This document shows, piece by piece, positions 1 through 46,490 of a stretch of 64,000 nt of DNA (positions within the stretch are counted from its first letter, which is position 1; each line of letters starts with the position of its first letter). The notes below the pieces were generated by a model, which was not told where the DNA came from, did not search any database, and saw nothing but the letters and a program-made list of their open reading frames with translations. The stretch covers positions 81,115-145,114 of the forward strand of contig CANQFC010000005.1 of assembly GCA_947598155.1 (NCBI GenBank), in the 5' to 3' direction. A program made the position numbers and the translations under genes. The stretch is from an uncultured Clostridia bacterium (GTDB lineage Bacteria > Bacillota > Clostridia > Oscillospirales > Acutalibacteraceae).

Positions 1-241
1 TAACTAAACATTATAGCGCATAGTTTTACTTTCTAATTAAAACAGTTTAAACACAATTATGAATATTCCGTAAATTAGAGTACAGAACGCATCTTGCTTG
101 TACTCCTGTAGTCTTTTTACGGAAGAAAGGCAAGGCAAACGTTTCTTGCAAACTCATAGATGTTGACGGTGTAGAATTGAACCGCGGTGAAATCGGTAAT
201 CTATCACAAGACAGAGTTGTGATAACAAAAAAGAAGTTGGG

Positions 242-433
242 TTTAATAAAAGAATTTTTTATTTGTTCTTGAAAAGCTTAAACTTAATATGTAAAAAAGT
301 ACATGGGGCGGTGTTTATGAAAAAGTAATATCGTCGGTTTTGGCGCTGTGTTTTACGGCGACGATATTTCCGTTTACGGTATTTTCTCAAAACATCACTC
401 CCGAAATATCGCTTGAGGAGTTTACGAAACAAA
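242..433 (+). pseudogene. degenerate duplicate of the promoter-proximal region plus first ~35 codons (signal peptide) of the S8 protease gene
   Basis: Aligns by eye to 2669..2860 with roughly 15 substitutions/indels. The RBS AAGGAG is ATGGGG here, and a 1-nt deletion gives ATG AAA AAG TAA. No protease body follows. Confidence 0.8.
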
Positions 434-497
434 AGATAAATTAACACTGACTGAAGAAACAAAGGATTTGACGAATAAATAAAATAATGTTAATATA

Positions 498-530
498 AAC
501 CTTGTTAGCTTTTTTGAACAAGGTTTTTAT
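498..530 (+). terminator. rho-independent terminator-like hairpin
   Basis: 9-bp perfect stem AACCTTGTT/AACAAGGTT with a 10-nt loop, followed by a T-run. It ends 13 nt before the response-regulator ATG. Confidence 0.55.
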
Positions 531-542
531 TTCGGTGATTTT

Positions 543-1241
543 ATGAAAATTTTAATTTGTGACGATGAAGAAAGATATTTAAATGAATTAAAAGTTCATG
601 TTGAGGAATACCTGAGAACGCACAATATAAAAGCAGAATTATTTACTACGCTTAACCCTAAAGAAATTATGGATTCCTCTTTTGCCTTTGATCTTGTATT
701 TCTTGATATTCAGATGCCTGAATTAAACGGCATTGAATTAGCCAAAGAATTGAAGAATCGCAACAATAAGGTTATATTTTTCTTTGTTACAAATTTTGAT
801 GAATATCTGGACGAAGCTATGGATCTTCGTATATTCAGATTTTTTGAAAAGCCTTTTAATGTAAAGCGTCTGTATTCAAGCCTTGACAGGGCAATGGAAT
901 ATATTGACGAATCATATGTGGATTTATTCCTCTACAACAACGGTGAGCACCAAAAAATTTTAGTTGATAATATCGTATATATTAAAAGGGAAAACAGAAA
1001 AGTGATTTTAACTACAAACAGCGGAAATGAATATACCACTAAAGAAAGTCTTGAACATTGGACAGAAAAACTGCCGAATACCTTTTTCTATTTAGTACAC
1101 AAGGGTTTCCTTATAAATCTTCATTATGTTACAAAATGCAGTTATACCGAGCTTTATATTGATAAGGTCAGAATTCCTATTGCTCCCAGAAAGCAAGCGA
1201 ATTTTCACAATTATTGGGTTGAGTATTTAAGAAGGAGATAA
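543..1241 (+). CDS. LytTR-family response regulator (AgrA-like), paralog of 46593..47297
   Basis: Receiver motifs ILICDDE and FLDIQMPELNG. C-terminal LytTR-type region LPNTFFYLVHKGFLINLHYV. There is a 1-nt gap to the kinase gene. Confidence 0.85.
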   Translation: MKILICDDEERYLNELKVHVEEYLRTHNIKAELFTTLNPKEIMDSSFAFDLVFLDIQMPELNGIELAKELKNRNNKVIFFFVTNFDEYLDEAMDLRIFRFFEKPFNVKRLYSSLDRAMEYIDESYVDLFLYNNGEHQKILVDNIVYIKRENRKVILTTNSGNEYTTKESLEHWTEKLPNTFFYLVHKGFLINLHYVTKCSYTELYIDKVRIPIAPRKQANFHNYWVEYLRRR

Positions 1242-1242
1242 T

Positions 1243-2532
1243 ATGGCATATATTACAATAATCGTATTGACATATTTTATGGAAATGCTCATATCGTATG
1301 CTTTTTTCTCCCAGATTGCAGAAAAGAAAGTTACAAATATAAAATGTATTACCGTGGGATTTTTACTGTTTGAAAGCGGAGCACTTGTTAATCTGCTACT
1401 GTCAAATATAGTTTGGTTAAATGCAATATGTTTTTTTGTTATAAATCTATTGTTTGGATTTATGTGTTACAGAATTAAATATACACGGCTGATTTTTCTC
1501 TCGGCATTGCTTGATATTTTCAGCACAGCACTTGAATTCGCTACTATTTTTTTGGTGTCTGCTATCACTGATACAGATACAAACGCATATCTTAATCAAA
1601 CCAATATGCTGATATTAGAACTCGTAATAAGCAAACTCCTCTATTTCTTAATTTGTAATATTACCGCACGGTTTGCTAAAAAAGAAAAGTCTAATATTAG
1701 GTTTCCGTTGGTCTTGTATATGTACCCGATTGTTGTTATTGCAGGACTTTTGGTTTTTTGGGATATTTGTGCGAATTCTGATATAAGCCACTCTCAAATG
1801 ATTGCTCTTGCCGTTATTAGTTCGGCTCTTTTCTTTTCAGTAGTGCTCCTTTTCATAATGTACCAGCACAATATTGAAAAAGAAAACGAGCTGTTTTTAC
1901 TGCAAAACGAGCTTGATAAAATCGAAACAGATAAAACGTATTATGATATTCTTGAAAAGCAAAATCAAGATTTAATGATTTACGCACATGATGCTAAAAA
2001 GCATTTATCTGCGATAAGCGAGTTTAATAAAAATCCTATTATTTCCGATTACATTGACGATATGTCCGAGGCTTTGAAATCTCACAGTAAAACAAGCCAT
2101 TCGGGCAACCATATATTTGATGTTATTCTAAACAAGTACGACACGGAATGCGAGCTTAAAAACATAAAGTTTTCTTATGATGTCAAGTTGTGCAATTTAG
2201 ATTTTATTGAAAACTATGACCTTGTAACAATTCTCGGCAACTTGTTAGACAATGCGGTTCGTGCAGCTGAAAACACAGAAAATGCTTTCATTTCGCTTTA
2301 CACACATTACACAAATACATACGCTGTTCTGGAAATATCAAACAAATGCAATACGCCGCCCGTTTTTTCCGATAAAGAACTGTTAACAACAAAAGAAAAC
2401 AAGCGACAACACGGCCTTGGAATAAAGAGTGTAAAAAAAGTCCTGAAAAAATACAGCGGAGACTTTGAATGGAAATATGATAATACAGATAAAGTATTCA
2501 CTGCTGTTTTAATGATTTTAAACGATAAATAA
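1243..2532 (+). CDS. AgrC-like membrane sensor histidine kinase (GHKL, HPK10-like)
   Basis: The N-terminal half is about six hydrophobic segments. H-box IYAHDAKKHLSAI, N-box LGNLLDNAVRAAE, G-box RQHGLGIKSVKKVLKKYSG. Full-length paralog of 47334..48614. Confidence 0.85.
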   Translation: MAYITIIVLTYFMEMLISYAFFSQIAEKKVTNIKCITVGFLLFESGALVNLLLSNIVWLNAICFFVINLLFGFMCYRIKYTRLIFLSALLDIFSTALEFATIFLVSAITDTDTNAYLNQTNMLILELVISKLLYFLICNITARFAKKEKSNIRFPLVLYMYPIVVIAGLLVFWDICANSDISHSQMIALAVISSALFFSVVLLFIMYQHNIEKENELFLLQNELDKIETDKTYYDILEKQNQDLMIYAHDAKKHLSAISEFNKNPIISDYIDDMSEALKSHSKTSHSGNHIFDVILNKYDTECELKNIKFSYDVKLCNLDFIENYDLVTILGNLLDNAVRAAENTENAFISLYTHYTNTYAVLEISNKCNTPPVFSDKELLTTKENKRQHGLGIKSVKKVLKKYSGDFEWKYDNTDKVFTAVLMILNDK

Positions 2533-2553
2533 TTTTTATAAATGCAATCTTCA

Positions 2554-2587
2554 AAAAGCGATTTGGCATTTGTCAAGTCGCTTTTTT
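2554..2587 (+). terminator. rho-independent terminator after the kinase gene
   Basis: Stem AAAAGCGATTT/AAGTCGCTTTT with a ~10-nt loop, followed by a T-run. Confidence 0.6.
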
Positions 2588-2622
2588 CTTGCAATTTGAC
2601 ACGATTTCCTTGCAATTTGTCA
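2588..2622 (+). promoter_or_regulatory. pair of direct repeats with LytTR-site geometry upstream of the protease gene
   Basis: CTTGCAATTTGACA at 2588..2601 and CTTGCAATTTGTCA at 2609..2622, exactly 21 bp start-to-start. A weak promoter-like TTGGAT-17 nt-TATTTT follows at 2629..2657. Confidence 0.5.
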
Positions 2623-2743
2623 TTTCAACTTGGATTTTTATCATTTTAAGGGTATTTTAAAGTTAGATTTAATAAAAGAATTTTTGATTTGTTATTAGAA
2701 AAGTTTTAACTTAATATGTAAAAAAGTACAAGGAGTGGTGTTT

Positions 2744-5700
2744 ATGAAAAAAATAATATCGGTGGTTTTAGCGCTGTGTTTGATGGCGACGATATTTCCG
2801 TTTACGGTATTTTCTCAAAACATCACTCCCGAAATATCGCTTGAGGAGTTTACAAAACAACTAAATCGGCTTCAGGAGGAATATGACGGAAATTTTGTTT
2901 CGGAAATCATTATTGAAGACGATAAGGAGTTTTGCCATATTGACGGTGAGGAATATCCCGTTGCCGATGATTTGGAAACAACAGCCGAAGTTACCGAAAA
3001 CGATATTGAAATTCCGTATTCCTTAATAGAACAGTATGTTGAAATTCCCGAAATTTCAACATATTCGCAAGCGCAAAACGACAATGGCGCAACTGTTGAC
3101 AAAGAAGCCGCCGAAGCTCTCGGTTTTGAGGTAGATATTGACGAGGATAAAGCTGTGCTTACACAGCCTTATCAGACCAAAAGGCTGATAGTAAAATCCA
3201 AGTATAATATAGACCGTCTTGACAGCGTAGCCGTAGTTGAGGGTTACGATGATTTGCATATAGTGCAGTTTGACAGCCGTGAAAGCGCAAAGCAGGCGGA
3301 AGAATACTACAACAGTCAAATGCTTGTTGAATTTGCCGAGCCCGATTTGGTTATGTCAACAATGGAATATGAGGACAGCGAAACGGAAAGCGCACCTACA
3401 TACGGCATAAACGACTATGGCTATCATCTGTCTTGGGGCAGTGAATATACAGGTATTGACGATTATATTGACTATATCGGCGACAGAAATAATCTGCCTG
3501 AAATAGTAGTTGGAGTAATTGATACAGGAATTGATGTTGACCATGAGTTTCTCAAAGACAGAATTATCCGCACTAATTATAATATAAGCTCGTCAGGTGA
3601 AGAAAATGATGAAAATGACGATAAAGGTCACGGTACACATGTCGCAGGCATTATTGCCGATAACACTTTAGACAATGTTAAAATTAAAGGCTACAAGGCT
3701 TTAAACAGTGCAGGAAACGGTACGCTTTCCGATGTCATAATAGCTTTTGATTATGCAGTTGCAGACGGTGTAAAGATAATCAATATGAGCCTTAGTACTG
3801 AGGGTACAAGTAAAACATTTGAAAAATCTATTAACGAAGCTACCAAAGACGGGGTGATAGTATGTGTTTCCGCCGGAAACAGCGGTCACTATGCTTCCCG
3901 AAACTGTCCGGCAAACATTGAAAGCTGTCTAACAGTAGGCGCTTATGAAGCCGGGCCTACTTTAAATACGTTTATGATTCCAATTTGGAGTTGTGACGGT
4001 CCATTGGTTGATGTAGTAGCGCCTGGTGTATCCATTTACAGCACATATCTTGATAACGGATATGAAACATTAAGCGGAACATCAATGGCTTCTCCTTTTG
4101 TCGCTGCGTCTGCCGCGCTCCTTTTATCTAAGAATATTAGTTTAAACGCTGACGGAGTATGCGATTTGTTACAGGAGAACGGAAAGCCCTTTGTTTGGCA
4201 TCCCGGAATCACTTATTATAAATTATACCTTGCTACAATAATCGAATACAATCAGTACCGGACAGATGAGCCCGTGTTCAGTATGGAAAGCGGCAGGTAT
4301 TCCGACAGCGTAACGGTGGAACTTTCCTGCCCCGAAGAAAATGCCGAGATATATTATACCCTCGACGGTTCAAGAGCCTCAAGGGCGAACGGAATTCTTT
4401 ACACAGAGCCTATTGTAATTGACAAGGTAACTAAGGTTCACGCCGCCGCCTACGCCGGAGACAAGCTGAAAAGTCTTCAGGCAATAGCCGATTACTATAT
4501 AACCGTGACAGACTCGGATGGAAATTTTGAAATAGATACGGACGGGTTGATTACTAAATATAACGGGACAAATCAGTATTTGACGATTCCCGATACAATT
4601 AACGGTATTACGGTAACGGGAATCGGAAAAGGCGCCTTTAACGGTAAAGGTATGATTATGATGAAATTCCCCGACACATTAACATACATAGCCGCATGGG
4701 GCCTTCAAGGGCAGTCATCATTAAAGTCAGTTTACTGCAACAATTTGAAAGTAGTCGGCGAAAGAGGATTCTATGGTTGCCGCGCGCTTGATACTATAGA
4801 TTTAACACAGCTTGAAGAAGTAGGCGTATACAGCTTTGGACAGTGTACTTCTATTCAAGAACTCTATAACGATAAATTGACAAGGTTAGAAAAGGGCTCG
4901 TTCTATCGTATAACAAACGCTGTAAGTGTTGATTTACCGAATGTTACATCTATTGATAATCTTGGATTAACAAGTTTAAACAATGTAGAACATATTAATT
5001 TACCAAAACTTGAGGCAATGGGAAACGGTGTTTTTGACGGTGCTTTCCTTTTAGAGACAATAGATCTTCCAAGCTTAACAACTTTAACCGGCAATCATTG
5101 CTTTGGAGCAACATCTAACCTAAAAGAACTAAATGTACCTAAATTAAGCGGAACAATTCATCAGAGTACTTTTTCAGGTTCTGCGCTTGAATATATTGAT
5201 TTTCCGAATGTTACGGCTTTAGAAAGTGGCGCTTTTTCCGGTTGCAATGCTAAAGTTATAAGATTACCAAGTGTTACAACGATTGAAGAGCAGGCTTTTT
5301 ACAATTGTATTAAATTAGAAGAATTATACATTCCATTAGCAACAAATATACCTGAAAGATCTCTTTTTAATGCGAAATCACTTAGAGTTTTGTTTGCTCC
5401 AAATGTAACAAACGCAGTATCAATGCCCGAGTGCGACGGTACAACAATATATCTGTCCAATGCTTGTACCAATCTGCCTGCTATACAAAGATATTCCTAT
5501 AACATCGTAGCGCCGTCGGGCTCATATGCAGAGCAATGGGCAAGTGAAAACGGGCATAATTTCATACCGAGCGACAGCAGAAATGAAAGCATAAAAAATC
5601 CCTCTAATGTAGCGGATTTGGGCAGGTCGATTTGCGTCTCTGCCGCAGGACTTCGTTTCGGCTTTAACTGGGATAATCTTGAGGAAATCGAAAGTCTTGC

Positions 5701-6037
5701 GGACAATATCGAATACGGCTTCGTTTACAGCATTAACGGTACGGAAGATTTAAGCGTTGACAAGACAGACAACATAAATGTAAGAAAAACGGAAGCAATA
5801 AACCGTGTCGACCACGGCAGTATAACCTCGTTTAATCTTGTTTTTGCAAATGTTCCGAAAGAATTTTGGGACAGCAAGCTTACCGCAAGGGCTTATGTAA
5901 ATATTGACGGAATGTATTTCTATTCCAATGTATCAACAGGAAGCTTTACCGAGGTAGCAAACCTTGTTTTGGCTGACGATACGGTTGACGAGACTACAAA
6001 ACAAGCCATAAGAAAATTGTTAGGCGGAGAGGTGTAA
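2744..6037 (+). CDS. secreted S8 (subtilisin-family) serine peptidase with C-terminal leucine-rich-repeat (BspA-like) region
   Basis: Signal peptide MKKIISVVLALCLMATIFPFTVFS. Catalytic triad motifs VGVIDTGID, HGTHVAGII, SGTSMASPFVA. Propeptide-like region upstream of the triad, and repeated LRR-like segments from about residue 600. Start moved to the ATG preceded by AAGGAG. Confidence 0.9.
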   Translation: MKKIISVVLALCLMATIFPFTVFSQNITPEISLEEFTKQLNRLQEEYDGNFVSEIIIEDDKEFCHIDGEEYPVADDLETTAEVTENDIEIPYSLIEQYVEIPEISTYSQAQNDNGATVDKEAAEALGFEVDIDEDKAVLTQPYQTKRLIVKSKYNIDRLDSVAVVEGYDDLHIVQFDSRESAKQAEEYYNSQMLVEFAEPDLVMSTMEYEDSETESAPTYGINDYGYHLSWGSEYTGIDDYIDYIGDRNNLPEIVVGVIDTGIDVDHEFLKDRIIRTNYNISSSGEENDENDDKGHGTHVAGIIADNTLDNVKIKGYKALNSAGNGTLSDVIIAFDYAVADGVKIINMSLSTEGTSKTFEKSINEATKDGVIVCVSAGNSGHYASRNCPANIESCLTVGAYEAGPTLNTFMIPIWSCDGPLVDVVAPGVSIYSTYLDNGYETLSGTSMASPFVAASAALLLSKNISLNADGVCDLLQENGKPFVWHPGITYYKLYLATIIEYNQYRTDEPVFSMESGRYSDSVTVELSCPEENAEIYYTLDGSRASRANGILYTEPIVIDKVTKVHAAAYAGDKLKSLQAIADYYITVTDSDGNFEIDTDGLITKYNGTNQYLTIPDTINGITVTGIGKGAFNGKGMIMMKFPDTLTYIAAWGLQGQSSLKSVYCNNLKVVGERGFYGCRALDTIDLTQLEEVGVYSFGQCTSIQELYNDKLTRLEKGSFYRITNAVSVDLPNVTSIDNLGLTSLNNVEHINLPKLEAMGNGVFDGAFLLETIDLPSLTTLTGNHCFGATSNLKELNVPKLSGTIHQSTFSGSALEYIDFPNVTALESGAFSGCNAKVIRLPSVTTIEEQAFYNCIKLEELYIPLATNIPERSLFNAKSLRVLFAPNVTNAVSMPECDGTTIYLSNACTNLPAIQRYSYNIVAPSGSYAEQWASENGHNFIPSDSRNESIKNPSNVADLGRSICVSAAGLRFGFNWDNLEEIESLADNIEYGFVYSINGTEDLSVDKTDNINVRKTEAINRVDHGSITSFNLVFANVPKEFWDSKLTARAYVNIDGMYFYSNVSTGSFTEVANLVLADDTVDETTKQAIRKLLGGEV

Positions 6038-6041
6038 AGAG

Positions 6042-6173
6042 ATGAAAAAGGAATATATTAAGCCCGATTTTGAAATTTTAATCTTTGAAACAGACGATAT
6101 TATCACAATAAGCGGCGAAGGCGGAGATCTCGGACCTGATGACAATGTCGTAACACCGTGGTTCATCGTATGA
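6042..6173 (+). CDS. 43-aa small ORF (MKKEYIKPDFEILIFETDDIITISGEGGDLGPDDNVVTPWFIV), candidate secreted/processed peptide
   Basis: Not in the ORF track because it is shorter than 60 aa. The ATG lies 4 nt after the protease stop, with GAGGTG 7 nt upstream. Its TGA overlaps the ATG of the next gene (ATGA). Confidence 0.5.
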   Translation: MKKEYIKPDFEILIFETDDIITISGEGGDLGPDDNVVTPWFIV

Positions 6174-6730
6174 AAAACAGGATTATTTTTGCATCTCTGA
6201 TGTTGGCTTTAGCGTCGGTTATACTTGTATCGTGTAAACAAGGCAAAAAAACGGACGGGAGCGCAACCGTTGCCGTGACCGACAGCAGCGGCGCAACTCA
6301 TTACTATGAACTTGTTACCGATAAGGGCGGAAATGCCGTTACGGAAGATAAAAATCAGGCTGTGTTTGCCGAAATTGTAACCGACAAAAGCGGCGCATAT
6401 ATAGCGAACGGGCATACAACCGTAATGCCGATTGAAAATGAAGTCAGTCAAGACCGTATATTAAACTCAACGAAAAAAAATCCGTCTTATACAGAAAAAA
6501 GCGGCGATATTGCAGAGGCCGATAATACCGTTAATTTTGAATTATCGGTATTAAGTCCCGTTACAGAAGAAAATACAACAGCGACTGCAAAACCCGACAC
6601 GACTAAGACTGCCGTGGCGAGTACAGAGCCTGACGATACCAAGACTTCCGCGGCGAGTGCGACATCTGCAATAAAGTCAACCAATCCGCCTGCCACCGAC
6701 AGCAACGGCTGGGTTACTAAGTGGTATTAA
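6170..6730 (+). CDS. putative lipoprotein with Thr/Ala/Ser-rich C-terminal half
   Basis: Signal peptide plus lipobox MKNRIIFASLMLALASVILVSC. Start placed at the ATG overlapping the upstream stop. Confidence 0.65.
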   Translation: MKNRIIFASLMLALASVILVSCKQGKKTDGSATVAVTDSSGATHYYELVTDKGGNAVTEDKNQAVFAEIVTDKSGAYIANGHTTVMPIENEVSQDRILNSTKKNPSYTEKSGDIAEADNTVNFELSVLSPVTEENTTATAKPDTTKTAVASTEPDDTKTSAASATSAIKSTNPPATDSNGWVTKWY

Positions 6731-6895
6731 CCGTGAAAAGACAGCAAACCGGCGTTCTGTTTGCCTGCAACATAAATTTATGCCGCAAAAATCCGTGCTA
6801 ACTGGAATTAAGTTTTGTAAATCGGGAAATTACATTAAATCATTGAAAATAAACAATTTTTGTGTTATAAATTATTTAAACAACTATGTAGGAGA

Positions 6896-7537
6896 ATGTT
6901 TGTGAAAGAAATCAGTTTTAAGAAACCGGTCATAATATTTATCGGCATATTTTCAGTTTTATTGCTGATTTTCTGCGCCTGCGGACAAAGCGGCGACGAG
7001 CAGATAAAAATTAACGGAGAAATTTATGAGGACGCAAACAGCGATTGGACGCCTTTCGGCGAGGCGGAAAAGAGCGGCGAATATTATCTTTACAAAAACA
7101 GTTTAGGCACGGTATTTGCCGAAGCCGGTCGTGACGGAGTTTTGGGCAGCGTTTTTTATCATAATAAAAATGATGCCTATCCCGATATTTCAATGACCGG
7201 GCAAATTGACAAAATCGTACTTGACACAGGCGATAAGCAAGAAACCTTGCGAGATGATATTAAGGATATTTTATTAAGCGAAATGCTCAACGCCGATAAC
7301 ACAAATCCCGAAACCGTTTCGGCGGAGCTTGCGGCGTCCGAGGTTTATGTTAATGTCTATTACAAGGATTATCCGGCATTTCAAAACGAAACGGCCATTT
7401 GCCGCTCACAAGACGGAAAGCTTGGATTTACCTATTGCAGCACGCAAAAAAATACTGAAAAATTTGGCGAGGGAAATATGTTCGTCTTTACCGACAAACA
7501 GTTGATTTCATATTTGGAAGAATTAAATCTTTTCTAA
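6896..7537 (+). CDS. hypothetical secreted/lipoprotein
   Basis: Hydrophobic leader ending in ...LLLIFCACGQSG. AGGAGA lies near the start. The start codon is ambiguous (ATG 6896 or GTG 6902). Confidence 0.55.
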   Translation: MFVKEISFKKPVIIFIGIFSVLLLIFCACGQSGDEQIKINGEIYEDANSDWTPFGEAEKSGEYYLYKNSLGTVFAEAGRDGVLGSVFYHNKNDAYPDISMTGQIDKIVLDTGDKQETLRDDIKDILLSEMLNADNTNPETVSAELAASEVYVNVYYKDYPAFQNETAICRSQDGKLGFTYCSTQKNTEKFGEGNMFVFTDKQLISYLEELNLF

Positions 7538-7620
7538 GGTTAAATTAAAAAGATTGTAATTAAATATTTTCCGCTTAAAATTTACTCATTACTTTCAACT
7601 CATTTTTGATTTTATAATGA

Positions 7621-7716
<96 letters not shown>

Positions 7717-7756
7717 GAACCGACGGGTAAACGCCCCGAGCAGTTCAAAAACAATT

Positions 7757-8080
7757 TTATATGGTTCTTACCTCAACTTGAACTTCTGTTATAATGTCAC
7801 GAAGCTTATCGCCGTCGATGGTATATTCTAAAATTTCATCGGCAGTTTTTGCATACACACCTTCAATATTACTGCATGGTTCATGGCTTTTTACATTTCG
7901 GTGTACTCCGTTGCTGTCAGTGTAATAACCCTCGCCGATATTTATCTTATCTTCGACATGTACAATTGAATATGCTTTACCTTTCCAAACAAATTCAACT
8001 TCACCGCCGCATTTCATACACCATTTAAAATCACTGATACTTTCAAATTTTAATGCTTCGCTGTTATTATATAGAATCAT
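7757..8080 (-). CDS. hypothetical protein (107 aa)
   Basis: ORF with GAGGTG 8 nt upstream of the internal ATG at 8080. I recognise no motif beyond a CMKCGG segment. Confidence 0.5.
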   Translation of the reverse strand: MILYNNSEALKFESISDFKWCMKCGGEVEFVWKGKAYSIVHVEDKINIGEGYYTDSNGVHRNVKSHEPCSNIEGVYAKTADEILEYTIDGDKLRDIITEVQVEVRTI

Positions 8081-8235
8081 ATTGCTTGCACCTCGCCAAT
8101 TTTTGAATTCCGGGAAATCCCCGTTCGGATAGTTAATAGGTGGTTGCAAATGAGGGAAACTATTACTCCAATCAATTTTATTTTATAATTAAAATTTTCT
8201 TTTGTCAAAATAAAACTATTTATAATTTTTAGTGA

Positions 8236-8610
8236 ACATTTAATTTACATATACACTTTACTTTCTCAGTGAAAAGTGAAAAAGTAAAAATCCGAGGTAC
8301 TTTAGTTGCTGCCATTTTAAATAATTTTGATGCTGTTGACAATTCATTAGAAACAATGACTAATAGTGCCGGTAGTGCAATGAAAGAGATGGAAATTATT
8401 GAGAATTCTCTTGAATTCAAATTGAACGCATTAGAGGAAACATCTGTTGGTATATTTCAAAATCTTTTTCATTCAGACCAAATGGGTTCTGTAATAGATT
8501 TTTTAACTAATTTACTTGAAATTCTTGATTCTATAACAGAAAAAATAGGCTTATTTGGTACTTTAGGAGCAAGTATTGGAATAGCCGCATTTATAAAGAG
8601 TATATCTTAA
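8236..8610 (+). pseudogene. internal fragment of a phage tail tape-measure protein (TP901-type core)
   Basis: Open frame with no credible start or RBS. The sequence ...NSAGSAMKEMEIIENSLEFKLNALEETSVGIFQNL...GLFGTLGASIGIAAFIK resembles the conserved tape-measure core. Confidence 0.55.
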
Positions 8611-9086
8611 CCTAATATATATGGTTGCTTAATAGCAGAGGATAGCACAGATAAGTATATAGACAAGTCTGTGAGCGTAGATACTCTATAAATAATTCTA
8701 CGAGGAGTAAATGCTGGGAAACTGGTTAAACCGATTATACTACAACATAATAGGAAACTATAAGTGTGAATGTTGCGAAAGCAGAAAAAAAATAATCGGA
8801 TGGTGCAAGGGAATAAATACGCCTAAACACCAAGTTCTGATTAAGAACAGATAGGATAACATCAGCAGGACATCGACCTAAAAGGCGAAATCCCCAGAGA
8901 CTACCCATCCTCCGAGTTATTATTTTATATAATAGCTTGTAATGTATAGTCCAAACAAAAGTGAAAACTTATCTTTCACTATAATTGTGGTACGCACTAT
9001 ATCTGTGTTGATAAGAAGATATAAATAATAATACACATAATTCTTACATATAAATATTATATATAGAATATTTTTAGGTGAAAAAA

Positions 9087-9308
9087 ATGGAATTTAATAA
9101 ATATGATTTAATCTTTACTATTAAAAAAGCTCAAAATTCTAATGATATTGTAATATTGAAAGAACTATTATTCATTTATAATCAATTGTTAAAACAAGAA
9201 ACAATAAATAACAATATAATAGAAACTTTTTATTGTTATCAAAAAATTTCACAAAACACAATAGAATTTTATAATAGAAATAAAAAAAATAGAAGATACC
9301 TTCTATAA
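9087..9308 (+). CDS. small hypothetical protein (73 aa), paralog of 9353..9556
   Basis: AGGTG lies 6 nt upstream of the ATG. Shares the pattern ELL..Y...L.QE.INN..I.EF..Y...S with the 67-aa ORF on the other strand. Confidence 0.5.
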   Translation: MEFNKYDLIFTIKKAQNSNDIVILKELLFIYNQLLKQETINNNIIETFYCYQKISQNTIEFYNRNKKNRRYLL

Positions 9309-9343
9309 GATATCTTTTTATAAGGTATCTTATAAGGTATCTT
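9293..9343. repeat. array of four 10-bp near-palindromic motifs AAG(A/G)TA(T/C)CTT between the convergent small genes
   Basis: Motifs at 9293, 9307, 9322 and 9334. The outer pair forms a perfect 12-bp inverted repeat, AGAAGATACCTT (9291..9302) / AAGGTATCTTCT (9334..9345). Confidence 0.7.
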
Positions 9344-9352
9344 CTTACTTGT

Positions 9353-9556
9353 TTATACATTTACTGATAATAGTATTTTTTTCGATGCCTCCGATAGATT
9401 TTCATAAAAAATAAATTCCATAATATAATCATTGTTTATTTTTTCTTGCTCTAACATTTTATAATATAAGGATAATAATTCCTCATATGAATTATATTCT
9501 TTATTTTTATATGCAGAATTGATTGCAGAAATTAAAACATTGCGTTTGATAGCCAT
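9353..9556 (-). CDS. small hypothetical protein (67 aa) coupled to the TIR gene
   Basis: The ATG lies 1 nt after the TIR gene stop, with GGAGG 9 nt upstream. Predicted to be helical and very AT-rich. Confidence 0.6.
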   Translation of the reverse strand: MAIKRNVLISAINSAYKNKEYNSYEELLSLYYKMLEQEKINNDYIMEFIFYENLSEASKKILLSVNV

Positions 9557-9557
9557 A

Positions 9558-10787
9558 TTATTCTTCCTCCGTATTCAAAATATCTTTTAAATTCCATTTA
9601 GGATTTAATTGCATTGAGGAAGATATATATTGAATCAAAAAATTTTCAATAAATCTATCAATTCTTAATACCAATAATGGAACAAGAAGCTCTCTGCTCT
9701 TATTTTTAGATTTATTTATAATTGAAATACACATAGAAATATCCATATCATAAAGTTTTGATATAGAATCAAAGGTAAATGTTATATAATCCCGTTTAAT
9801 TTGTTCATTGGCATGAGCCTTTTTATGTAAATCTTCATTATAACTTTTAACAACAGGCATACTTGTTTTTTGTGAACATTCTATCATTCCACCTTTTGCA
9901 GCAATAGGCCTTGTCGATAAATTTATAATTGGATAACCGATGTTGCTAAATTTAATATATTTATCATTTTTCTTAAATCTAAAATGAACACAAGTATCAT
10001 CTATCCCTACGAAATATTGTTGAATATATGAAAATATTTGAATTAAGTAACTTTCAAGATTATTTTTACCATATGCCATTAATGTGCCATTAGTTAATCT
10101 TGGTGAAGTTATTAATGTAGATAACATCTGTAATTGCTTGTTTGTTATTTCTTCTAATTTTAATATAAATTGCTGAATTTCATTTATATATAAAATTGTT
10201 TTATCAAATAAATTTTGTGTCAAACTAATTGATTTAAGATTTCCGTCTTTTATAATTGGGATTTTAACATCGGTTTTATTTGCCGTATTTTTAGTTTTTT
10301 TATTATTTACTTTACTTAAACTTTTATTATCATTGTTAAAGTATTCTTTAAACAAATTACTGATTCCTATAAAAGCATCAATATAACCTCTATCTTGTGG
10401 GCGAAATGATTTTATTGGTTTGCCATCAGTAGGAACAAATTTCAAACAATTAAACACATAATCCCCAGGTACAATATCTTTGCAGATAACCGGTATTACA
10501 ATACATTTTCCTTCTTTATGTCTTTTTATGGCATTTTCAAGTTCTATATCATAACAATATTTAGAAGCAATAAAATCTGGAGTAATAAGAAGAAAAATAA
10601 CATTAGAATCTTTAAGGTTTTTCAAAATTTCTTTATCTATATCACCACCAGGGTTTATCCTACCATCATACCATTGAGAAATATTATAAAGCCGTGATAG
10701 TGCATCTAAATGTGTTTTAAATCTATCACATATTGACTTATCTTTATGTGAATATGAAATAAAGCACTTGATATTATCATTTGACAT
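9558..10787 (-). CDS. TIR-domain protein with uncharacterised ~230-aa C-terminal region
   Basis: N-terminus CFISYSHKDKSICDRF...VIFLLITPDFIASKYCYDIELENAI matches the bacterial TIR_2 pattern, including the conserved Glu. GGAGG lies 6 nt upstream of the ATG. Confidence 0.8.
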   Translation of the reverse strand: MSNDNIKCFISYSHKDKSICDRFKTHLDALSRLYNISQWYDGRINPGGDIDKEILKNLKDSNVIFLLITPDFIASKYCYDIELENAIKRHKEGKCIVIPVICKDIVPGDYVFNCLKFVPTDGKPIKSFRPQDRGYIDAFIGISNLFKEYFNNDNKSLSKVNNKKTKNTANKTDVKIPIIKDGNLKSISLTQNLFDKTILYINEIQQFILKLEEITNKQLQMLSTLITSPRLTNGTLMAYGKNNLESYLIQIFSYIQQYFVGIDDTCVHFRFKKNDKYIKFSNIGYPIINLSTRPIAAKGGMIECSQKTSMPVVKSYNEDLHKKAHANEQIKRDYITFTFDSISKLYDMDISMCISIINKSKNKSRELLVPLLVLRIDRFIENFLIQYISSSMQLNPKWNLKDILNTEEE

Positions 10788-10962
10788 ATTTTACCTCCTT
10801 TTATGTTGTTAAATTATAACATAATATAATCATATATTCAATATTTATTACAAAAAAAATATAAAATAAACATGTCCAATCAATTTTGTAGGGAATAAAA
10901 TATAATATGTTACATTATTTAGGCTATCAAGTCTAACCGCAATTTGTACGATAATTAACTGT

Positions 10963-11502
10963 TTACCACTTATATCCGCAATGATTACATTTGAATTGTG
11001 ACCTTGCGGTTTTGCTTAACAAACCAAATGTTGCCGCTCCGATTACTTTTGAAGTGGTGGAAATCTTTTGGGTGTTTGTTGAGCCGCAGGTTGGGCATTT
11101 AATAGCTTTTTTCTGTCTTTCCCTCCATCTCTTATCAAGTTCTGCAATTTTAGTATTTAAGGGATTTATATAATCTGAATCCGAAGGAACAAAATCCATC
11201 TCATAACCAAGTTGACCAAAAGAGTGTTTAAGGTACTCCATGCTTTCAACTTCTATACCTTGCAATATTATATTTCCTTGGGTACTAAGTAATGTGCAAC
11301 CTTGTCCTTTTTCAACTTTAAACACATCTTCAAGGAAATCACTTGCACAACCCCTTTTAGGATTGGCACTTATAGTTTTTAAAACCATATCATATATACC
11401 AGAATTCGATACATAACTTTCTAAGGGGAAGCCACAGTGAATACATTGTTTGGATTTATCAGAAATCTCTTTTCCGCATTCAGGACAATTTATTAATGCC
11501 AT
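10963..11502 (-). CDS. double zinc-ribbon protein
   Basis: N-terminal CPECG...CIHCG and C-terminal CPTCG...CNHCG, with a short hydrophobic stretch between the latter pair. Start set at MALINCPECG with AGGAG 8 nt upstream. Confidence 0.65.
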   Translation of the reverse strand: MALINCPECGKEISDKSKQCIHCGFPLESYVSNSGIYDMVLKTISANPKRGCASDFLEDVFKVEKGQGCTLLSTQGNIILQGIEVESMEYLKHSFGQLGYEMDFVPSDSDYINPLNTKIAELDKRWRERQKKAIKCPTCGSTNTQKISTTSKVIGAATFGLLSKTARSQFKCNHCGYKW

Positions 11503-11554
11503 ATAATCATCTCCTTTGATACAGTATACCACAACTGTATTTTTAATTCAATAG

Positions 11555-12802
11555 TCTGCATATAAAGAATTAAAGGATGCGGATGGTTTTATTACTTCAA
11601 CAAAATCAGGTAAAATTAAAAAATTACTAAATGAAGCATTTAATCTTGATGACACCAGTAAAATATCGGGTAAAGTATTTAAAAACCTCTCAAACGGCGC
11701 AAAACAGTATGCGGCTTCATTAAAAGAAACCCACAACCCGATTAAAGCATTCAATGCTGGCTTATCCGCTATGAGTACAACGGCAAAAACACTATTAGGA
11801 ACATTTGCTATTGTAACCGCCGTAATTGCCGCCATTAAATTTGCCGAAAGTGCATATGACAAATCGCATGATAATTTAGATGACCTTTCTGAAAAAGGCA
11901 GTAAAATTTCAGAAGAACTTTCTAATGTAAAAAGTGATATTGATAAAATAGACGAACAAATTTCGGCATTGATTAAGCAAAGATTAAGTATCACGGATTC
12001 AAGTGATATTTCTACTTTAAATACACAAATTGAACTTTTAAAACAGCGGAAAGAACTCTTGGAGTGGCAATATGAAAATAAGAAAAGAGAAGCCGAAAAT
12101 AATGCCAAGGAAAAAATTGAGGGTACTAAAAACGACTCTGTCTATAACGGTGCTTCCTATATGGATGGCGAAAAAGGGAAATTATCAAAAGGCAAAAGAT
12201 TTTTCTATTTGATTGGTGGTGAACAAGCACCAACAACATATAGTGCAGAAGCATATGTAGATACATTAGAAAACAGACTTGCTTCCATTCATCCGGAAGA
12301 ATTAGAGAGTGTTTTATATAATCTTGAAGAAATATATAATACCTATGATGAAATTGTTCAAAATGACGATTTAATTGGAACAGAAACATATGATATTGCC
12401 ATCGAAAAGCAGAAACAAATTAATGAATTACTTCAAGAAACACAATATTTGCAAGAAGTTAGAAATGGATTAGATAAAGAATACATAAATGATGCGGATT
12501 TTTCAGATTATTTAGGTGGATATGTTCTTTATCAAAAGAACTTAAATTCCCTTATTCAAAAAGGTTATTCTAATGGAATAGTAACCTTAAAAGATGTAAA
12601 GAGTCAATTTGGAGACTATGCTTCTAATTTGGAAAATGAATTGGGTAAACAAGAAAGAACTCTTGAAGATTATGTTACTTGGTTAAATGCTGCTTCTGCT
12701 TCTCAAATTGAATTTCTTAATAGTTCAAATGTTAATAGTTCAGCAACCTCTTTTAAGAGTTATTCAAAGGCACTTAATGAATATAAAGATAACCTCGGAT
12801 TT
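11555..12802 (+). pseudogene. fragment of a phage tail tape-measure protein (truncated at both ends)
   Basis: The frame opens right after a stop with no start codon. It has a membrane-like segment TLLGTFAIVTAVIAAIKFAE followed by coiled-coil-like sequence. The reading frame then runs into a tRNA 3' fragment and non-coding repeats. Confidence 0.55.
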
Positions 12803-12826
12803 TTGGTGGAGACGGTCGGGATCGAA
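12803..12826. repeat. third, short copy of the tRNA-Ala 3' end
   Basis: TTGGTGGAGACGGTCGGGATCGAA is identical to 13084..13107 and 7657..7680. Confidence 0.8.
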
Positions 12827-13020
12827 GCTTCGCTTCGTTCGGTTGCTTCGCAACCCTTTCGCATTTTTATGTCCGCCTCGCTCTGCCTATCGGCAAACCG
12901 CTCGGCATGGACTAATTCGCTTCGCTTGCTTCGTTCGCTTGCTTCGCAACCCTTTCGCATTTTTATGTCCGCCTCGCTCTGCCTGTCGGCAAACCGCTCG
13001 GCATGGACTGTTCGGTTCGC
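12827..13020. repeat. two tandem copies of a ~96-bp unit
   Basis: GCTTCGCAACCCTTTCGCATTTTTATGTCCGCCTCGCTCTGCCT(A/G)TCGGCAAACCGCTCGGCATGGACT occurs at 12845..12913 and 12941..13009. Confidence 0.85.
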
Positions 13021-13048
13021 TCCCGACGTTATACTTTGCAAAATAAAC

Positions 13049-13160
<112 letters not shown>

Positions 13161-13776
13161 ATATCTTTATAAGCCTTAATTTTACTAAGGTTTTGGCTTG
13201 TTTTTTACATTCAATTTAAAATTACTTTCGGGGTAGTTTACCTGTTTGCTTGCGCTCCAAAGCTTAAGCTACGCCCCCAAGCGCAAAGATATAATATCAC
13301 AAAGTAAATAAAAACTCAACTGTTTTTTTCAAAAATATAAAAATATTTTCTCATCGTCGGAAAAATGCTTTTATCGGTAAGATTTTGATAAATTACATCG
13401 CAGTAAAAACAGAGAAAAAATCAGTAAGCTTTCGGCAAATTACAGCGCGTTAAAACAGCGACTTAAAGCAACGGAAAATATAAGGCGAGGTGAGCCGAAC
13501 CCGTGTCGGTTTTCAACGGCAGATTTGCGCCATGCTGTGTCACCGCCCCTTGACAATACGGCAGTATTATCTTCGGACGTTTCCTTGCCTTAATTCCAAT
13601 TTGAGTATAATATTTGTTTTTTCCCATTTCAACACTCGGCGGAATTTAAGCTCTGATTTATAAAAATATCAAAGAAATATGATGTATATTAAAAAATAAG
13701 ACGGCGGAATCCCGAAAACGGGCTTGAAAGGAACGGTATATAATGATACAATTACAGACGGAAGGCAAGTGTTTAT

Positions 13777-14241
13777 ATGCGCGTTTACGTTCAAAATTTT
13801 AACTCTCCGGTCGGCAATATCGTCGTAAAATCAAACGGTTTGGCGGTTACGGATATTTTTCTCGGCGAATATACGGATGAAAATCCCGATAAAATTACGG
13901 AAAAGGCCGTAAGTGAGCTGTCTTTGTATTTCGGCGGCAGGCTTACACGTTTTTCATTCCCAATTGAGCCGGTAGGAACGGATTTTCAAAAGAGAGTTTG
14001 GAAAATACTTACGGAAATTCCCTACGGAAAAACTCTTTCATACGGCGGCGTTGCTCAAAGGCTCGGCGGAAAGCGGTATTCACGGGCTGTCGGCGGGGCG
14101 GTTAATAAAAATCCTATTCTTATAGTAATTCCGTGCCACAGAGTGATAGGTTCCGACGGCTCGCTTACGGGCTTTGCGGGAGGAATTTCAGTTAAAAAAT
14201 ATCTATTAGATACGGAGAAAAACGATGATTTTCAGAAATAA
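13777..14241 (+). CDS. ogt: methylated-DNA--protein-cysteine methyltransferase
   Basis: Active-site motif IPCHRVIG and the surrounding MGMT DNA-binding domain pattern. Confidence 0.85.
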   Translation: MRVYVQNFNSPVGNIVVKSNGLAVTDIFLGEYTDENPDKITEKAVSELSLYFGGRLTRFSFPIEPVGTDFQKRVWKILTEIPYGKTLSYGGVAQRLGGKRYSRAVGGAVNKNPILIVIPCHRVIGSDGSLTGFAGGISVKKYLLDTEKNDDFQK

Positions 14242-14896
14242 ATCAGTTCCTTTTGAAATAATGTCAAAATATGACAACGTCAAAAACACAAAAAGAGCCA
14301 ATTACAAATTTTTAAACGAAACCGCCGCTCTACAAGGGCAAACCGTACTCGCCGGCGACTCGATAACTGAAATTTTTAATTGCTATGAGCTGTTTTATAA
14401 CTGGTCAAAGGCAAATAACTGCGCCGTCTATAACAGGGGAATAAGCGGCGACACCTCAAACAGACTCTCGGAGCGTTTTTATGACAATGTTCTGAATATT
14501 CGGCCGAAGAACATAATTCTGCTTATCGGCACGAATGATATAGGAATGGGCAGAAAGCCGGCCGACGCGGTCGAAAATATACGGGATATTCTGGAGCAAA
14601 TACGAAACTGTTCTGCTGACGCCAACGTTATACTTCAGGCGGTTTACCCTGTGAATAAGAAAATGTCGGCTGAATCGCGCTCAATGGTGGGCATTCGCAC
14701 AAACGGCAAAATTCGGGAAATGAACGCTCTTTTAAAGCCGCTTGCGAAGGATTTTTGCTGCGCTTGGCTCGACCTTACAGACGCGCTTTCCGATGAAAAC
14801 GGCGATTTAAATAAAAATTATTGCTATGACGGACTTCATTTGAACGCGAACGGGTTTAAAGTCGCCGCTGAAAACATTATACCGCTTTTGAAATAA
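14225..14896 (+). CDS. SGNH/GDSL-family hydrolase
   Basis: Blocks VLAGDSITE, GISGD, GTNDIG and DGLHLN. Confidence 0.75.
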   Translation: MIFRNKSVPFEIMSKYDNVKNTKRANYKFLNETAALQGQTVLAGDSITEIFNCYELFYNWSKANNCAVYNRGISGDTSNRLSERFYDNVLNIRPKNIILLIGTNDIGMGRKPADAVENIRDILEQIRNCSADANVILQAVYPVNKKMSAESRSMVGIRTNGKIREMNALLKPLAKDFCCAWLDLTDALSDENGDLNKNYCYDGLHLNANGFKVAAENIIPLLK

Positions 14897-14918
14897 AATC
14901 AGTCTCGGAGTGTTAATT

Positions 14919-15689
14919 ATGATTTACAAAATTTACAGTCAAAAAGAGATAGAGGAAAGACCGCAGAGAAATAATGTGATTTTGGAAAGCTATGTCATAG
15001 GCCAAAACGCTCCCACGGTTTTAATTTGCCCCGGAGGCGCATATAAATTTATATCAAACCATAACGAGGGCAAACCGTTTGCGGAAAAGCTGAATGCGCA
15101 CGGGTACAACGCTTTTGTGCTTTTTTATAGCGTGGGTTTCGGCAACGGCCGTTTTCCGTATCCGCTTCAGGACGTGGCAAGGGCTGCGCAGTTCATTAAA
15201 TCAAAGGCAAAGGAGCTTAATATAAACGCAGACGGAATTAGCCTTATGGGCAGCTCCGCCGGAGGGCATCTGTGCGCGTTTTTCGCTTCACAGTACAAGA
15301 ATTTTGAAGGGGAGTATAACGGAGAATTTTATTCGCTGAAACCGCAATCCCTTGTGCTTTGCTACCCGGTAATCACTATGCGTGAGCTTACGCACAAGCT
15401 TTCAAGATATATTTTTCTCGGATTTTTTTCCGGAAAAGCGGAACGTGAAAGGGCTTCGGTTGAGCTTAATATAACGGGCGATTATCCGCCTGCCTTTGTT
15501 TGGCACAATAAAGACGACGCTACCGTTGACGTGCGTAACAGTATAATGTTCCAAAAAGCGCTTGATGAAAAAGGCGTTAAAAATGAACTTCATTTATACG
15601 AAACGGGCGGTCACGGAATAGGATTGGCAAAGGGGAAAGAGGCCGAGGGATGGATTGAAAAAGCGATGGCGTTCCTTGACTCAATTTAA
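14919..15689 (+). CDS. alpha/beta hydrolase (esterase/lipase-like)
   Basis: Nucleophile elbow GSSAGGH and a C-terminal GGHG. Start set at the ATG with GGAG 8 nt upstream. Confidence 0.7.
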   Translation: MIYKIYSQKEIEERPQRNNVILESYVIGQNAPTVLICPGGAYKFISNHNEGKPFAEKLNAHGYNAFVLFYSVGFGNGRFPYPLQDVARAAQFIKSKAKELNINADGISLMGSSAGGHLCAFFASQYKNFEGEYNGEFYSLKPQSLVLCYPVITMRELTHKLSRYIFLGFFSGKAERERASVELNITGDYPPAFVWHNKDDATVDVRNSIMFQKALDEKGVKNELHLYETGGHGIGLAKGKEAEGWIEKAMAFLDSI

Positions 15690-15815
15690 ATAAAGGGCTT
15701 GCCAGTTATTAAACGCGGCAAGGCACGGCAACAGCCGCACAGAAAAATCAGAGTGGACAAAATCCCCACTGATTTCGAAATTGATAAATCCTGCGGAGCT
15801 TGATACAAAGCCGAG
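15681..15815 (-). repeat. dispersed ~140-bp structured intergenic repeat, reverse orientation, 5' part degenerate
   Basis: AATAAAGGGCTTGCCAGTTATTAAACGCGGCAAGGC...AATCAG...AAAATCCCCACTGATTTCGAAA matches the reverse complement of the 44641 unit. Confidence 0.6.
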
Positions 15816-15941
15816 GAAAACCACAAAGTGCGCCTTTGCGGTGTAAGTTTTACGCTTGCAGTGCAAAGTGTTTTTCGGGTGATGTGTAACGGCTGGGTTA
15901 TATACCCGCGCAATGAATAGGGATTTATAGGAGAAAATTAA

Positions 15942-16337
15942 ATGAAACGAGAACTGGGAATAGCACGCTGTGGACTGGCATGTTGCTTATGCAGCGAAAA
16001 TGAACATTGTAGCGGATGCAATTCGGGAGAATGCCCTGACAAGGACTGGTGCGAAAACAGAAAATGTTCTATTGAGAAAAAATATACACATTGTCATGAA
16101 TGTAAAGCTGAATGCAGAAAAGGCTTGCTGTCCAAAATAAAACCTTATGGGTTTACCTTGTTTATCAAAAGATACGGAGAGAAAGAACTTTTAGACTGCC
16201 TTGAACGGAATGAAAAAGCAGGCGTTGTTTATCATCGAGAAGGAATTTATGGCGATTATGATGACTTTCATGATGTGGAGGAACTAATCGAATTTATTAA
16301 AACGGGGAAAAAGAATTTCCTGTTTACCAAAATATAA
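15942..16337 (+). CDS. DUF3795-like Cys-rich protein
   Basis: N-terminal CGLACCLCSENEHCSGCNSGEC pattern. Confidence 0.6.
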   Translation: MKRELGIARCGLACCLCSENEHCSGCNSGECPDKDWCENRKCSIEKKYTHCHECKAECRKGLLSKIKPYGFTLFIKRYGEKELLDCLERNEKAGVVYHREGIYGDYDDFHDVEELIEFIKTGKKNFLFTKI

Positions 16338-45060: not shown

Positions 45061-45197
45061 AACTGCATTGCGATAAGTTTTTGTAAAGGTTATACAATCA
45101 ACATCTAAATGCCAGTGACAATTTGTCACAAATTTATATAAAAACACTTATATACACCGTTTAAAAGTTTTGCCTTAAATATATAAATAATTTAATA

Positions 45198-45943: not shown

Positions 45944-46003
45944 CTCCTTTTAATTCGACAATATTATAACAGATTTACTATTTGATGTCTATAAAATCGC
46001 CGA

Positions 46004-46485: not shown

Positions 46486-46490
46486 CGGCA

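Follow-up and report, generated by a model that had tools for sequence, protein, structure and literature searches.

What signal does an AgrA/AgrC-like regulator-kinase pair receive, and what does it control, when it is encoded without agrB or agrD at its side and directly in front of a secreted-protease operon? The question is raised by a stretch of 64,000 nucleotides from an uncultured Clostridia bacterium (contig CANQFC010000005.1, positions 81,115 to 145,114; hereafter the window), in which such a pair (543-2532) precedes the genes for an S8 subtilase, a 43-aa peptide and two lipoproteins (2744-7537). By comparing the locus with its relatives, we came to favour, with rather better than even confidence, the reading that the region is an old operon with a recently inserted quorum-sensing regulatory cassette, and that the peptide is the cargo of this circuit and not its input. 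The closest named relatives of the window were two rabbit-gut metagenome-assembled genomes (MAGs), Lapin-024__bin7 and Lapin-022__bin52 (both 'uncultured Clostridia bacterium'). A further contig (ERZ27249413 contig NODE_22, ENA; L001) was 100% identical to the window and reached 8.7 kb further upstream.

The regulator gene (543-1241, plus strand; allele 'RR232') encodes an AgrA-like protein (Pfam Response_reg, 2.5e-15; LytTR, 1.5e-13), and the kinase gene (1243-2532, plus strand; allele 'HK429') a polytopic sensor histidine kinase of the AgrC/HPK10 type (HATPase_c_5, 1.9e-22), with about 6-7 hydrophobic segments in residues 1-205 and with H, N and G boxes. The polytopic HPK10 kinase and the LytTR regulator by which an agr-type locus is recognised were both found in this pair; both proteins scored far below the NCBIfam AgrA/AgrC equivalog cut-offs. 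A first-pass annotation, made from the sequence alone, had described the two genes as full-length paralogs of a second pair at 46593-48614 and had noted that no AgrB or AgrD was adjacent. Both observations were borne out. The regulators were 55% identical (E 3e-96; paralogue at 46593-47297) and the kinases 49% (E 1e-147; paralogue at 47319-48614; 45% in the sensor and 53% in the cytoplasmic part), and the motifs FLDIQMPE, IFRFF.KPFN..RLYS and LPNTFFYLVHK were all present, as were the kinase boxes. PF04647 (AgrB) had no match in 543-7537 or in the 8.7 kb upstream of the window edge, which encode only unrelated membrane proteins and an extracytoplasmic function (ECF) sigma/anti-sigma pair. An AgrD with a Cys/Ser ring was not found beside the first pair, where the sole small conserved open reading frame (ORF) is that of the 43-aa peptide, with neither a Cys nor the AgrD layout. 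The second pair has both genes.

The kinase gene is followed by an intrinsic terminator (hairpin and T-run, 2553-2586, plus strand; -18.9 kcal/mol, z -6.2), which separates it from the operon, so the operon needs a promoter of its own. Directly behind the terminator stand two 14-bp direct repeats, CTTGCAATTTG(A/T)CA, which we call the T1 boxes (2588-2622, plus strand) and regard as a candidate LytTR site. The copies, CTTGCAATTTGACA at 2588-2601 and CTTGCAATTTGTCA at 2609-2622, are exactly 21 bp apart from start to start, as had been reported. When matches per 13 positions at offset 21 were compared with 2000 shuffles, the window repeats gave 12/13 matches and none of the shuffles reached that value (0/2000); the rest of the window yielded no good copy of these repeats. 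The promoter that had been described behind them, TTGTCA-16-TATCAT (2617-2644, plus strand), proved to be the best match in 1-8000 (10/12 positions), and its -35 hexamer falls within the proximal repeat (2609-2622). Published LytTR sites are made of repeats of 9-11 nt with spacers of 11-13 nt and have no common consensus (PMC4847170), and critical G residues for RgaR lie at -51 and -72 (PMC10602386). Two repeats of that length and spacing, beside a -35, were found at 2588-2622.

A second, divergent cassette has the same design. In Lapin-024__bin7 (L015), the same position before the same gene is taken by a regulator and a kinase that share 27% and 32% identity, respectively, with the window's, and their terminator is followed by TTCTGCGTTTATC/TTCTGCGTTTGTC, 13-bp repeats at offset 21 (0/2000 shuffles). 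The two box types have in common a TGC..TTTGTC core and the phase, and their geometry agrees with that of the published sites. Since core and phase are kept at only 27% regulator identity, this suggests constraint rather than leftover common ancestry. Altogether, three LytTR/HPK10 alleles share position and orientation before the same subtilase gene, the other two being 27-35% identical to the window's pair. Each has its own terminator, and two of the three also have their own significant 21-bp-phased repeats by the -35; the T1 boxes accompanied the RR232 allele at each site where it stands before the subtilase gene. All the arrangements agree in that a terminator, and behind it the subtilase promoter, follow whichever kinase gene is nearest to the subtilase. 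In the allele of locus L004, the whole promoter region is duplicated, before its own regulator operon and before the subtilase gene, as one would expect of a regulator that acts both on its own operon and on a target. The earlier proposal that the sensor pair controls the operon gains from these patterns: the wiring of the pair to the protease operon is, on comparative grounds, well supported, and the cassette probably places the operon under peptide quorum-sensing control.

The pair lies in a unit with recognizable borders. The older core promoter, ribosome-binding site (RBS) and functional 5' end of the subtilase gene (A2, 2660-2860, plus strand; inner promoter TTGTTA-17-TAATAT, read by eye) have an upstream copy of promoter, RBS and the first ~30 codons (A1, 234-432, plus strand), which is 91% identical to 2660-2860. 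A1 is a pseudo-start, because its reading frame is broken (ATGAAAAAGTAA). This ~200-bp direct repeat, with an A1-to-A2 spacing of 2428 bp, had gone unremarked in the first-pass annotation; as the segment stands on both sides, the 2428-bp unit is bracketed by direct repeats in an A-X-A arrangement, with the pair inside the 2.43-kb unit. The duplication junctions are at 432/433 and 2659/2660, away from the 14-bp repeats. A promoter-like TTGACG-17-TAATAT with a TG extension (468-496, plus strand; consensus scan) lies 47 nt ahead of the start of the regulator gene and could serve the pair as a constitutive promoter; a terminator-like hairpin with a T-run lies between A1 and the regulator gene (492-531, plus strand; -10.9 kcal/mol, z -3.6).

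The unit varies between strains in copy number and allele. In another sample it occurred in tandem, so that the segment is present three times and the pair twice, and many short-read contigs of other samples ended exactly at the repeat boundary. Related strains carried another allele (239-aa regulator, 432-aa kinase), either by itself or stacked ahead of the window's own. Lapin-024__bin7 (2528-16129) has a tandem of two paralogous subtilase modules: the first is behind the third LytTR/HPK10 allele, with a peptide gene seen after its subtilase, and the second is behind a regulator-less kinase gene and the window's allele, the locus breaking off within the second subtilase gene. Just behind the first kinase gene there, GAAAATTCAATAAAAAA occurs twice as a perfect 17-bp tandem. 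We also considered an agr-like hypervariability of the sensor among kinase alleles and rejected it, as the divergence sits in cytoplasmic residues 241-320. Alleles of the same kinase (window vs L006, L007 and L015) were 88-100% identical in the sensor domain and only 65-70% in residues 241-320, which suggests a recombined patch in this dimerisation/linker region rather than diversification of signal specificity.

Could the pair have come to rest here by chance and regulate something else, with the repeats being recombination scars or a part of the terminator region? The site is a recombination hot spot with duplications and mosaics, a terminator stands between the two units, and the inner promoter-like site lies within the duplicated segment, all of which would fit such an origin. 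It is, however, difficult to reconcile with three unrelated alleles fixed at the exact position and in the same orientation before the same gene, with phased repeats that abut the -35 in two of them, and with junctions that do not fall at the repeats. We therefore consider a chance landing unlikely.

The three tightly packed genes that had been noted behind the promoter were all found as described. The first encodes a secreted S8 subtilase of 1097 aa (2744-6037, plus strand; Peptidase_S8, 2.9e-45) with a signal peptide, a pro-region, the catalytic domain, CHB_HEX_C/Fn3_assoc, three BspA-type leucine-rich repeat (LRR_5) stretches and a C-terminal beta-sandwich. The secretion signal and the catalytic motifs of the Asp/His/Ser triad are intact (DTG259, HGTH295, GTSMA444; triad D259/H295/S446; residues numbered on the translation from 2747, without the initial Met). 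The architecture S8 + CHB_HEX_C + LRR_5 was found in hundreds of protein clusters. An AlphaFold2 model of the C-terminal 185 aa (predicted local distance difference test, pLDDT, 84.7) is a beta-sandwich whose best fold matches are CBM21-like, though weak (TM 0.4-0.55). The gene of the 43-aa peptide (6042-6173, plus strand) starts 4 nt after the subtilase stop and is overlapped by ATGA by that of lipoprotein 1 (6170-6730, plus strand; 186 aa). This protein has a lipobox LVSC (...ASVILVSC|KQ, read from the sequence), an N-terminal motif TAVTDSxGxTHYYE, a long Thr/Ser-rich low-complexity linker and a conserved C-terminus, ...PATDSNGWVTKWY. The layout is that of a membrane tether which displays a terminal peptide, and from it and the invariant C-terminus we propose that lipoprotein 1 may hold the subtilase, which has no anchor of its own, to the membrane. 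The last gene of the operon, which had not been remarked on before, encodes lipoprotein 2 (6902-7537, plus strand; 211 aa; lipobox ...LLIFCAC|GQ, read from the sequence) and is conserved in L004-L009 and L016. Both lipoproteins have a signal peptide that ends in the lipobox Cys.

Is this operon as recent as the cassette before it? We compared four contexts in which the subtilase is 78, 65, 55 and 47% identical to that of the window. A family ORF of 38-41 aa follows the subtilase gene by ~3 nt in all four (uncalled but present in one), and the peptide is directly followed, in three of them, by a lipoprotein with the C-terminus PATDKDGW(V/I)TKWY. Orthologues of lipoprotein 1 ending in PATD(K/S)(D/N)GW(V/I)TKWY follow the peptide in L004, L010, L158, L159 and L161. 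None of the four contexts has a LytTR two-component system next to the trio; the upstream neighbours there are an RHS protein, an ECF sigma factor with a Listeria-Bacteroides-repeat protein, and a clpC operon. Of the five-gene arrangement whose conservation had been in question, the trio is kept down to 47% subtilase identity, but the sensor pair is absent there and variable in sister strains. Because the trio is kept without the LytTR system in distant genomes, it is ancestral, and the quorum-sensing input a recent, lineage-specific addition in the window's lineage. The old operon is common across one clostridial lineage, with a peptide gene for 38-44 aa that begins 3-4 nt behind the subtilase stop. 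The 78% relative has a small ORF for a two-helix membrane protein directly upstream of the subtilase gene, which is absent from the window. This ORF is the ancestral neighbour on the upstream side of the subtilase gene and was moved or duplicated by the cassettes in rabbit strains. Its conserved product of 53-56 aa with two hydrophobic helices (…PFLVIIFIVMCGITIKKF…) was observed in L004 (4155-4325), L007 (6344-6514) and L158 (4816-4977).

We next considered the 43-aa peptide. Its gene has a strong RBS, GGAGAGGTG, inside the 3' end of the subtilase gene, and its relatives vary by in-frame 12-nt indels, from which the 43-codon ORF is very likely a real gene; substitution counts were uninformative, with too few differences between relatives. 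The N-terminal ~25 residues resemble the leader of a ribosomally synthesised and post-translationally modified peptide (RiPP) (MKKEYIKPDFEILIFETDDIITISG) and are followed by the tail GGDLGPDDNVVTPWFIV, which includes the stretch DLGPDDNVVTPWFIV and ends in the hydrophobic C-terminus PWFIV. Pfam and NCBIfam gave no match to the peptide, a PDB sequence search with it gave nothing, and a literature search by sequence strings of the peptide family retrieved nothing relevant and no published description of the family. A profile search of 1.84 billion representative proteins at E<1e-3 recovered at least 146 clusters (50% identity), almost all of 29-68 aa, with the consensus MKKEYxxPxxExxxFxxxD(I/V)ITxS, in which M1, Y5, P8, D19 and S24 are at least 90% conserved. 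The tails are Gly-rich and acidic and often contain Trp. Members occur in gut and rumen Clostridia, Lachnospiraceae and Bacilli. Apparent members in Bacteroidota were found by a pattern that fixes the first eight residues, and their membership is weaker (37-54% over 24-38 residues).

Relatives of the peptide gave sub-threshold matches to the thiazolylpeptide, StsA and paeninodin precursor models. Homology of the leader to precursors that depend on a RiPP recognition element (RRE) was found: the peptide is 49% identical over 39 aa to the precursor of L035, whose branch has Cys-rich tails and a cluster of HprK/ScmC-like, PqqD, radical-SAM/SPASM maturase and C39 ABC exporter genes. Trp-containing acidic tails like that of the window occur in L084 and L098, directly before genes for HprK-like, PqqD (PF05402, 1.6e-17) and S26/signal-peptidase-I-like proteins and an ABC transporter. 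As the same leader occurs in PqqD clusters, the N-terminal half of the peptide behaves like a leader for a PqqD-type chaperone. A large surface protein precedes peptides of this kind too (1517 aa before an L084-type peptide in L146; at least 444 aa in L098).

Such a partner is the recurrent feature of the family. In the context sample (13 genome loci and 40 distinct peptides out of 120 metagenome loci), a large protein with a signal peptide ends 2-125 nt upstream of the peptide gene, with LRR_5, Flg_new, Big_2, beta-helix or carbohydrate-binding module (CBM) architectures, and with type IX secretion system (T9SS) C-termini in Bacteroidota MAGs. Among the family loci sampled, an S8 catalytic domain is confined to partners from the window's own subtilase lineage. 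Beside the family peptides of about 160 further loci, no AgrC-like kinase was found, and a regulator-like match was seen at one. A common C-terminal domain in the preceding proteins was rejected as a general rule, as a seeded HMM (hidden Markov model) recovered its own seeds and one independent match among 43 proteins. We also rejected the idea that frameshifting or readthrough fuses the peptide to the protein before it, since frames and gaps were inconsistent between loci. In human-gut loci (L081, L134 and about 80 similar ones), a ~1950-aa surface protein (divergent InlB B-repeat, Flg_new_2) is followed by a family peptide, MKKEYSSPEFELVKFKFEDIILTGSLDDTPEATKSDGDDWG. Peptide MKKEYSSPEFELVKFKFEDIILTGSLDDTPEATKSDGDDWG, followed by an LRR_5/dockerin protein and then by an HprK/ScmC-like one, was very abundant in human-gut assemblies. 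We suggest tentatively, and at less than an even chance, that the 43-codon ORF stands for a new kind of secreted-peptide or RiPP-like system that is partnered with surface proteins and was here captured by interchangeable receptor cassettes. In this lineage the peptide may be a substrate of the subtilase, which is not the general logic of the family.

The same neighbourhoods could be explained if the peptide stayed in the cytoplasm as a targeting or holding factor for the large secreted protein encoded upstream. It lacks a signal peptide, genes for an exporter or a maturase are missing near most family loci, and the N-terminus is constant across very different partner proteins while the tail varies. 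Sisters with the same leader, however, stand in clusters with PqqD, S26-like proteins and an ABC exporter, or with a radical-SAM protein and a C39 exporter, and the partner proteins leave the cell unfolded via Sec, or via the type IX system in Bacteroidota. A cytoplasmic role accordingly has, in our estimate, a low probability, similar to that of the chance landing.

If the peptide is cargo, the signal has to come from elsewhere, and the window contains a source of the expected kind. A complete agr-type locus (agrD-agrB-XRE-agrA-agrC) was found at 45198-48614. It comprises agrB (45198-45788, minus strand; PF04647, E 1e-33), the only AgrB found; a Cys-containing, agrD-like ORF of 51 aa (45788-45943, minus strand), which contains ...TTCFAIYQP... 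and ...ANSTTCFAIYQPKAP...; an XRE-family regulator gene (46147-46485) between agrD/agrB and the regulator-kinase pair; and the paralogous regulator and kinase genes, which are divergent from agrD/agrB. The layout is unusual, with a minus-strand agrD ahead of agrB, the XRE gene and then the divergent pair, and a near-perfect palindrome, GTGACAATTTGTCAC, was seen at about 45117-45131, just downstream of agrB. Since this locus has its own kinase and regulator, the first pair is a second, paralogous receptor, for whose kinase the resident agr locus is a candidate source of signal.

The first-pass annotation had proposed a different loop, in which the orphan kinase would sense the exported peptide once the subtilase has matured it, with no need of AgrB or AgrD. 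The translational coupling of the peptide to a secreted protease downstream of the sensor pair, the leader-plus-tail layout with its hydrophobic end, the age of the subtilase-peptide adjacency and the maturation by GelE of an fsr-co-regulated peptide (PMC5454873) speak for it; but the four distant trios and about 160 other family loci have no such kinase nearby, kinases 31-35% identical precede peptides 86-91% identical, HK429 itself is found with two variants of the peptide, neither a signal peptide nor an exporter gene in the locus is present, and the same genome has a canonical agrD/agrB source, so that we regard this loop as very unlikely and conclude that the peptide is probably not the signal.

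We return to the reading of an old operon with an inserted cassette. In this scheme, the 2.43-kb unit would have been inserted before the operon in the rabbit-gut lineage, with duplication of the promoter and the 5' end. We infer that HK429 senses an extracellular cyclic peptide of the autoinducing peptide (AIP) type, which would come from the agrD/agrB genes at a distance of 43 kb or else from other strains, and that the kinase would phosphorylate the LytTR regulator. The phosphorylated regulator would bind both repeats as a dimer and switch on the protease-peptide-lipoprotein operon, in parallel with fsr driving gelE-sprE in Enterococcus faecalis. Genes outside the locus would then probably supply the machinery that processes and exports the 43-aa peptide, the subtilase possibly making the last cut, and the function of the peptide may be tied to the surface protein encoded before it.

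Several results weigh against this scheme. First, no copy of the 14-bp repeats (<=2 mismatches) and nothing significant at offset 21 was found upstream of the regulator (1-542); therefore, the autoinduction typical of agr is not evident here. Second, repeats at about 21 bp in the L004 cassette (AGGTCAAT/AGGCAAT) and in the resident agr intergenic region (AACGCAAT/AACGCAAG) reached only 9/13, a value also found in 15-26% of shuffles, and were therefore rejected as evidence. Third, the cassette is nearly identical among strains, so that conservation of the repeats within the RR232 allele says little. In addition, the second promoter-like site, in the duplicated segment, could drive the operon without the regulator. 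Finally, genes for PqqD, HprK-like and S26-like proteins were not found by HMMs in the window, L001, L004, L005, L015 and L016, tblastn was negative, and Pfam on sampled window genes revealed no peptide exporter. As none of these genes and no exporter gene was found in the window and ~9 kb upstream, the fate of the peptide is conjecture.

Among described systems, fsr of E. faecalis comes closest. Its regulator FsrA binds to LytTR sites ahead of fsrB, gelE and ef1097, so that the fsr regulon takes in the secreted-protease operon gelE-sprE, and GelE trims the co-regulated EF1097 precursor (PMC5454873). As in fsrABDC/gelE-sprE, the genes of an AgrC/AgrA-type kinase and of a LytTR regulator stand immediately before a secreted-protease operon whose promoter carries LytTR sites (candidate ones in the window), and the fsr regulon likewise includes a peptide that is trimmed by the protease. 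The window differs in four respects. Its pair has no agrB/agrD-type genes of its own, its protease is a 1097-aa S8-LRR protein instead of a metalloprotease and a small serine protease, its peptide is encoded within the operon and lacks a Sec signal, and its sensor pair is a cassette that varies between strains. The HPK10 polytopic kinase, the LytTR regulator and paired repeats of ~21 bp register abutting the -35 are also found in Staphylococcus aureus agr (P2/P3; PMC4847170), but the window pair has neither adjacent AgrB/AgrD nor boxes before the regulator gene.

In Clostridioides difficile, the AgrC-like kinase RgaS, the VirR-like RgaR and agrB1D1 are unlinked (PMC10602386). The window pair resembles RgaS/RgaR and VirS/VirR of Clostridium perfringens in being encoded away from agrBD and in having target repeats 21 bp apart (PMC10602386; PMC7492741). 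Unlike these, it is physically attached to one target operon, in a genome that also has a complete agr locus. With regard to the peptide, the N-terminal MKKxYxxPx(L/F) leader is shared with RRE (PqqD)-dependent RiPP precursors (lasso peptides, sactipeptides and ranthipeptides), and sister peptides stand beside PqqD, radical-SAM/SPASM, HprK-like and ABC genes; the window peptide departs from them in its Cys-free tail, in the coupling of its gene to a large surface protein, and in that no PqqD, maturase or exporter gene was found locally. The gene of a secreted S8 protease stands beside that of a leader-bearing peptide in LanP-type loci (e.g. NisP), as it does in the window. Unlike LanP loci, the window has no LanB, LanC, LanM or LanT, its peptide has no Cys, and most relatives of the peptide follow non-proteases.

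The DNA downstream of the operon was also surveyed. A 74-bp direct repeat with 1 mismatch (7643-7716 and 13070-13146) covers the 3' ~58 nt of a tRNA-Ala(GGC) gene (13085-13160, minus strand) plus 16 nt. The island between the two copies (about 7717-13069; ~5.4 kb; GC 27-30%) encodes a TIR-domain protein (9558-10787, minus strand) and a zinc-ribbon protein (10963-11532, minus strand), and looks like a defence islet integrated at the tRNA gene. In other strains, Thoeris ThsA/ThsB (L005) or AraC and GH3 (L004) take the place of the TIR gene downstream of the operon. Further on, 16820-44167 is occupied by a long cluster of same-strand genes for polysaccharide/deoxy-sugar biosynthesis; the genes sampled there encode a GT2 glycosyltransferase, a DegT aminotransferase, an NDP-hexose 2,3-dehydratase, EpsG, a Wzx-like flippase and an acyltransferase.

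The locus presents a natural case of sensor-target rewiring, in which close gut strains attach one, two or three AgrC/AgrA-type cassettes to one protease operon, joined by recombination at a duplicated promoter segment. It offers a tractable example of how signal specificity may be swapped or stacked on one target, and of how commensal Clostridia may put surface proteases under cell-density control. The wiring resembles fsr-gelE. For the large peptide family, which consistently follows big surface proteins in gut bacteria, no description was found. If the family peptides are exported, they would constitute an unexplored set of microbiome peptides; if they are not, they would represent an accessory of surface-protein biogenesis not previously known.

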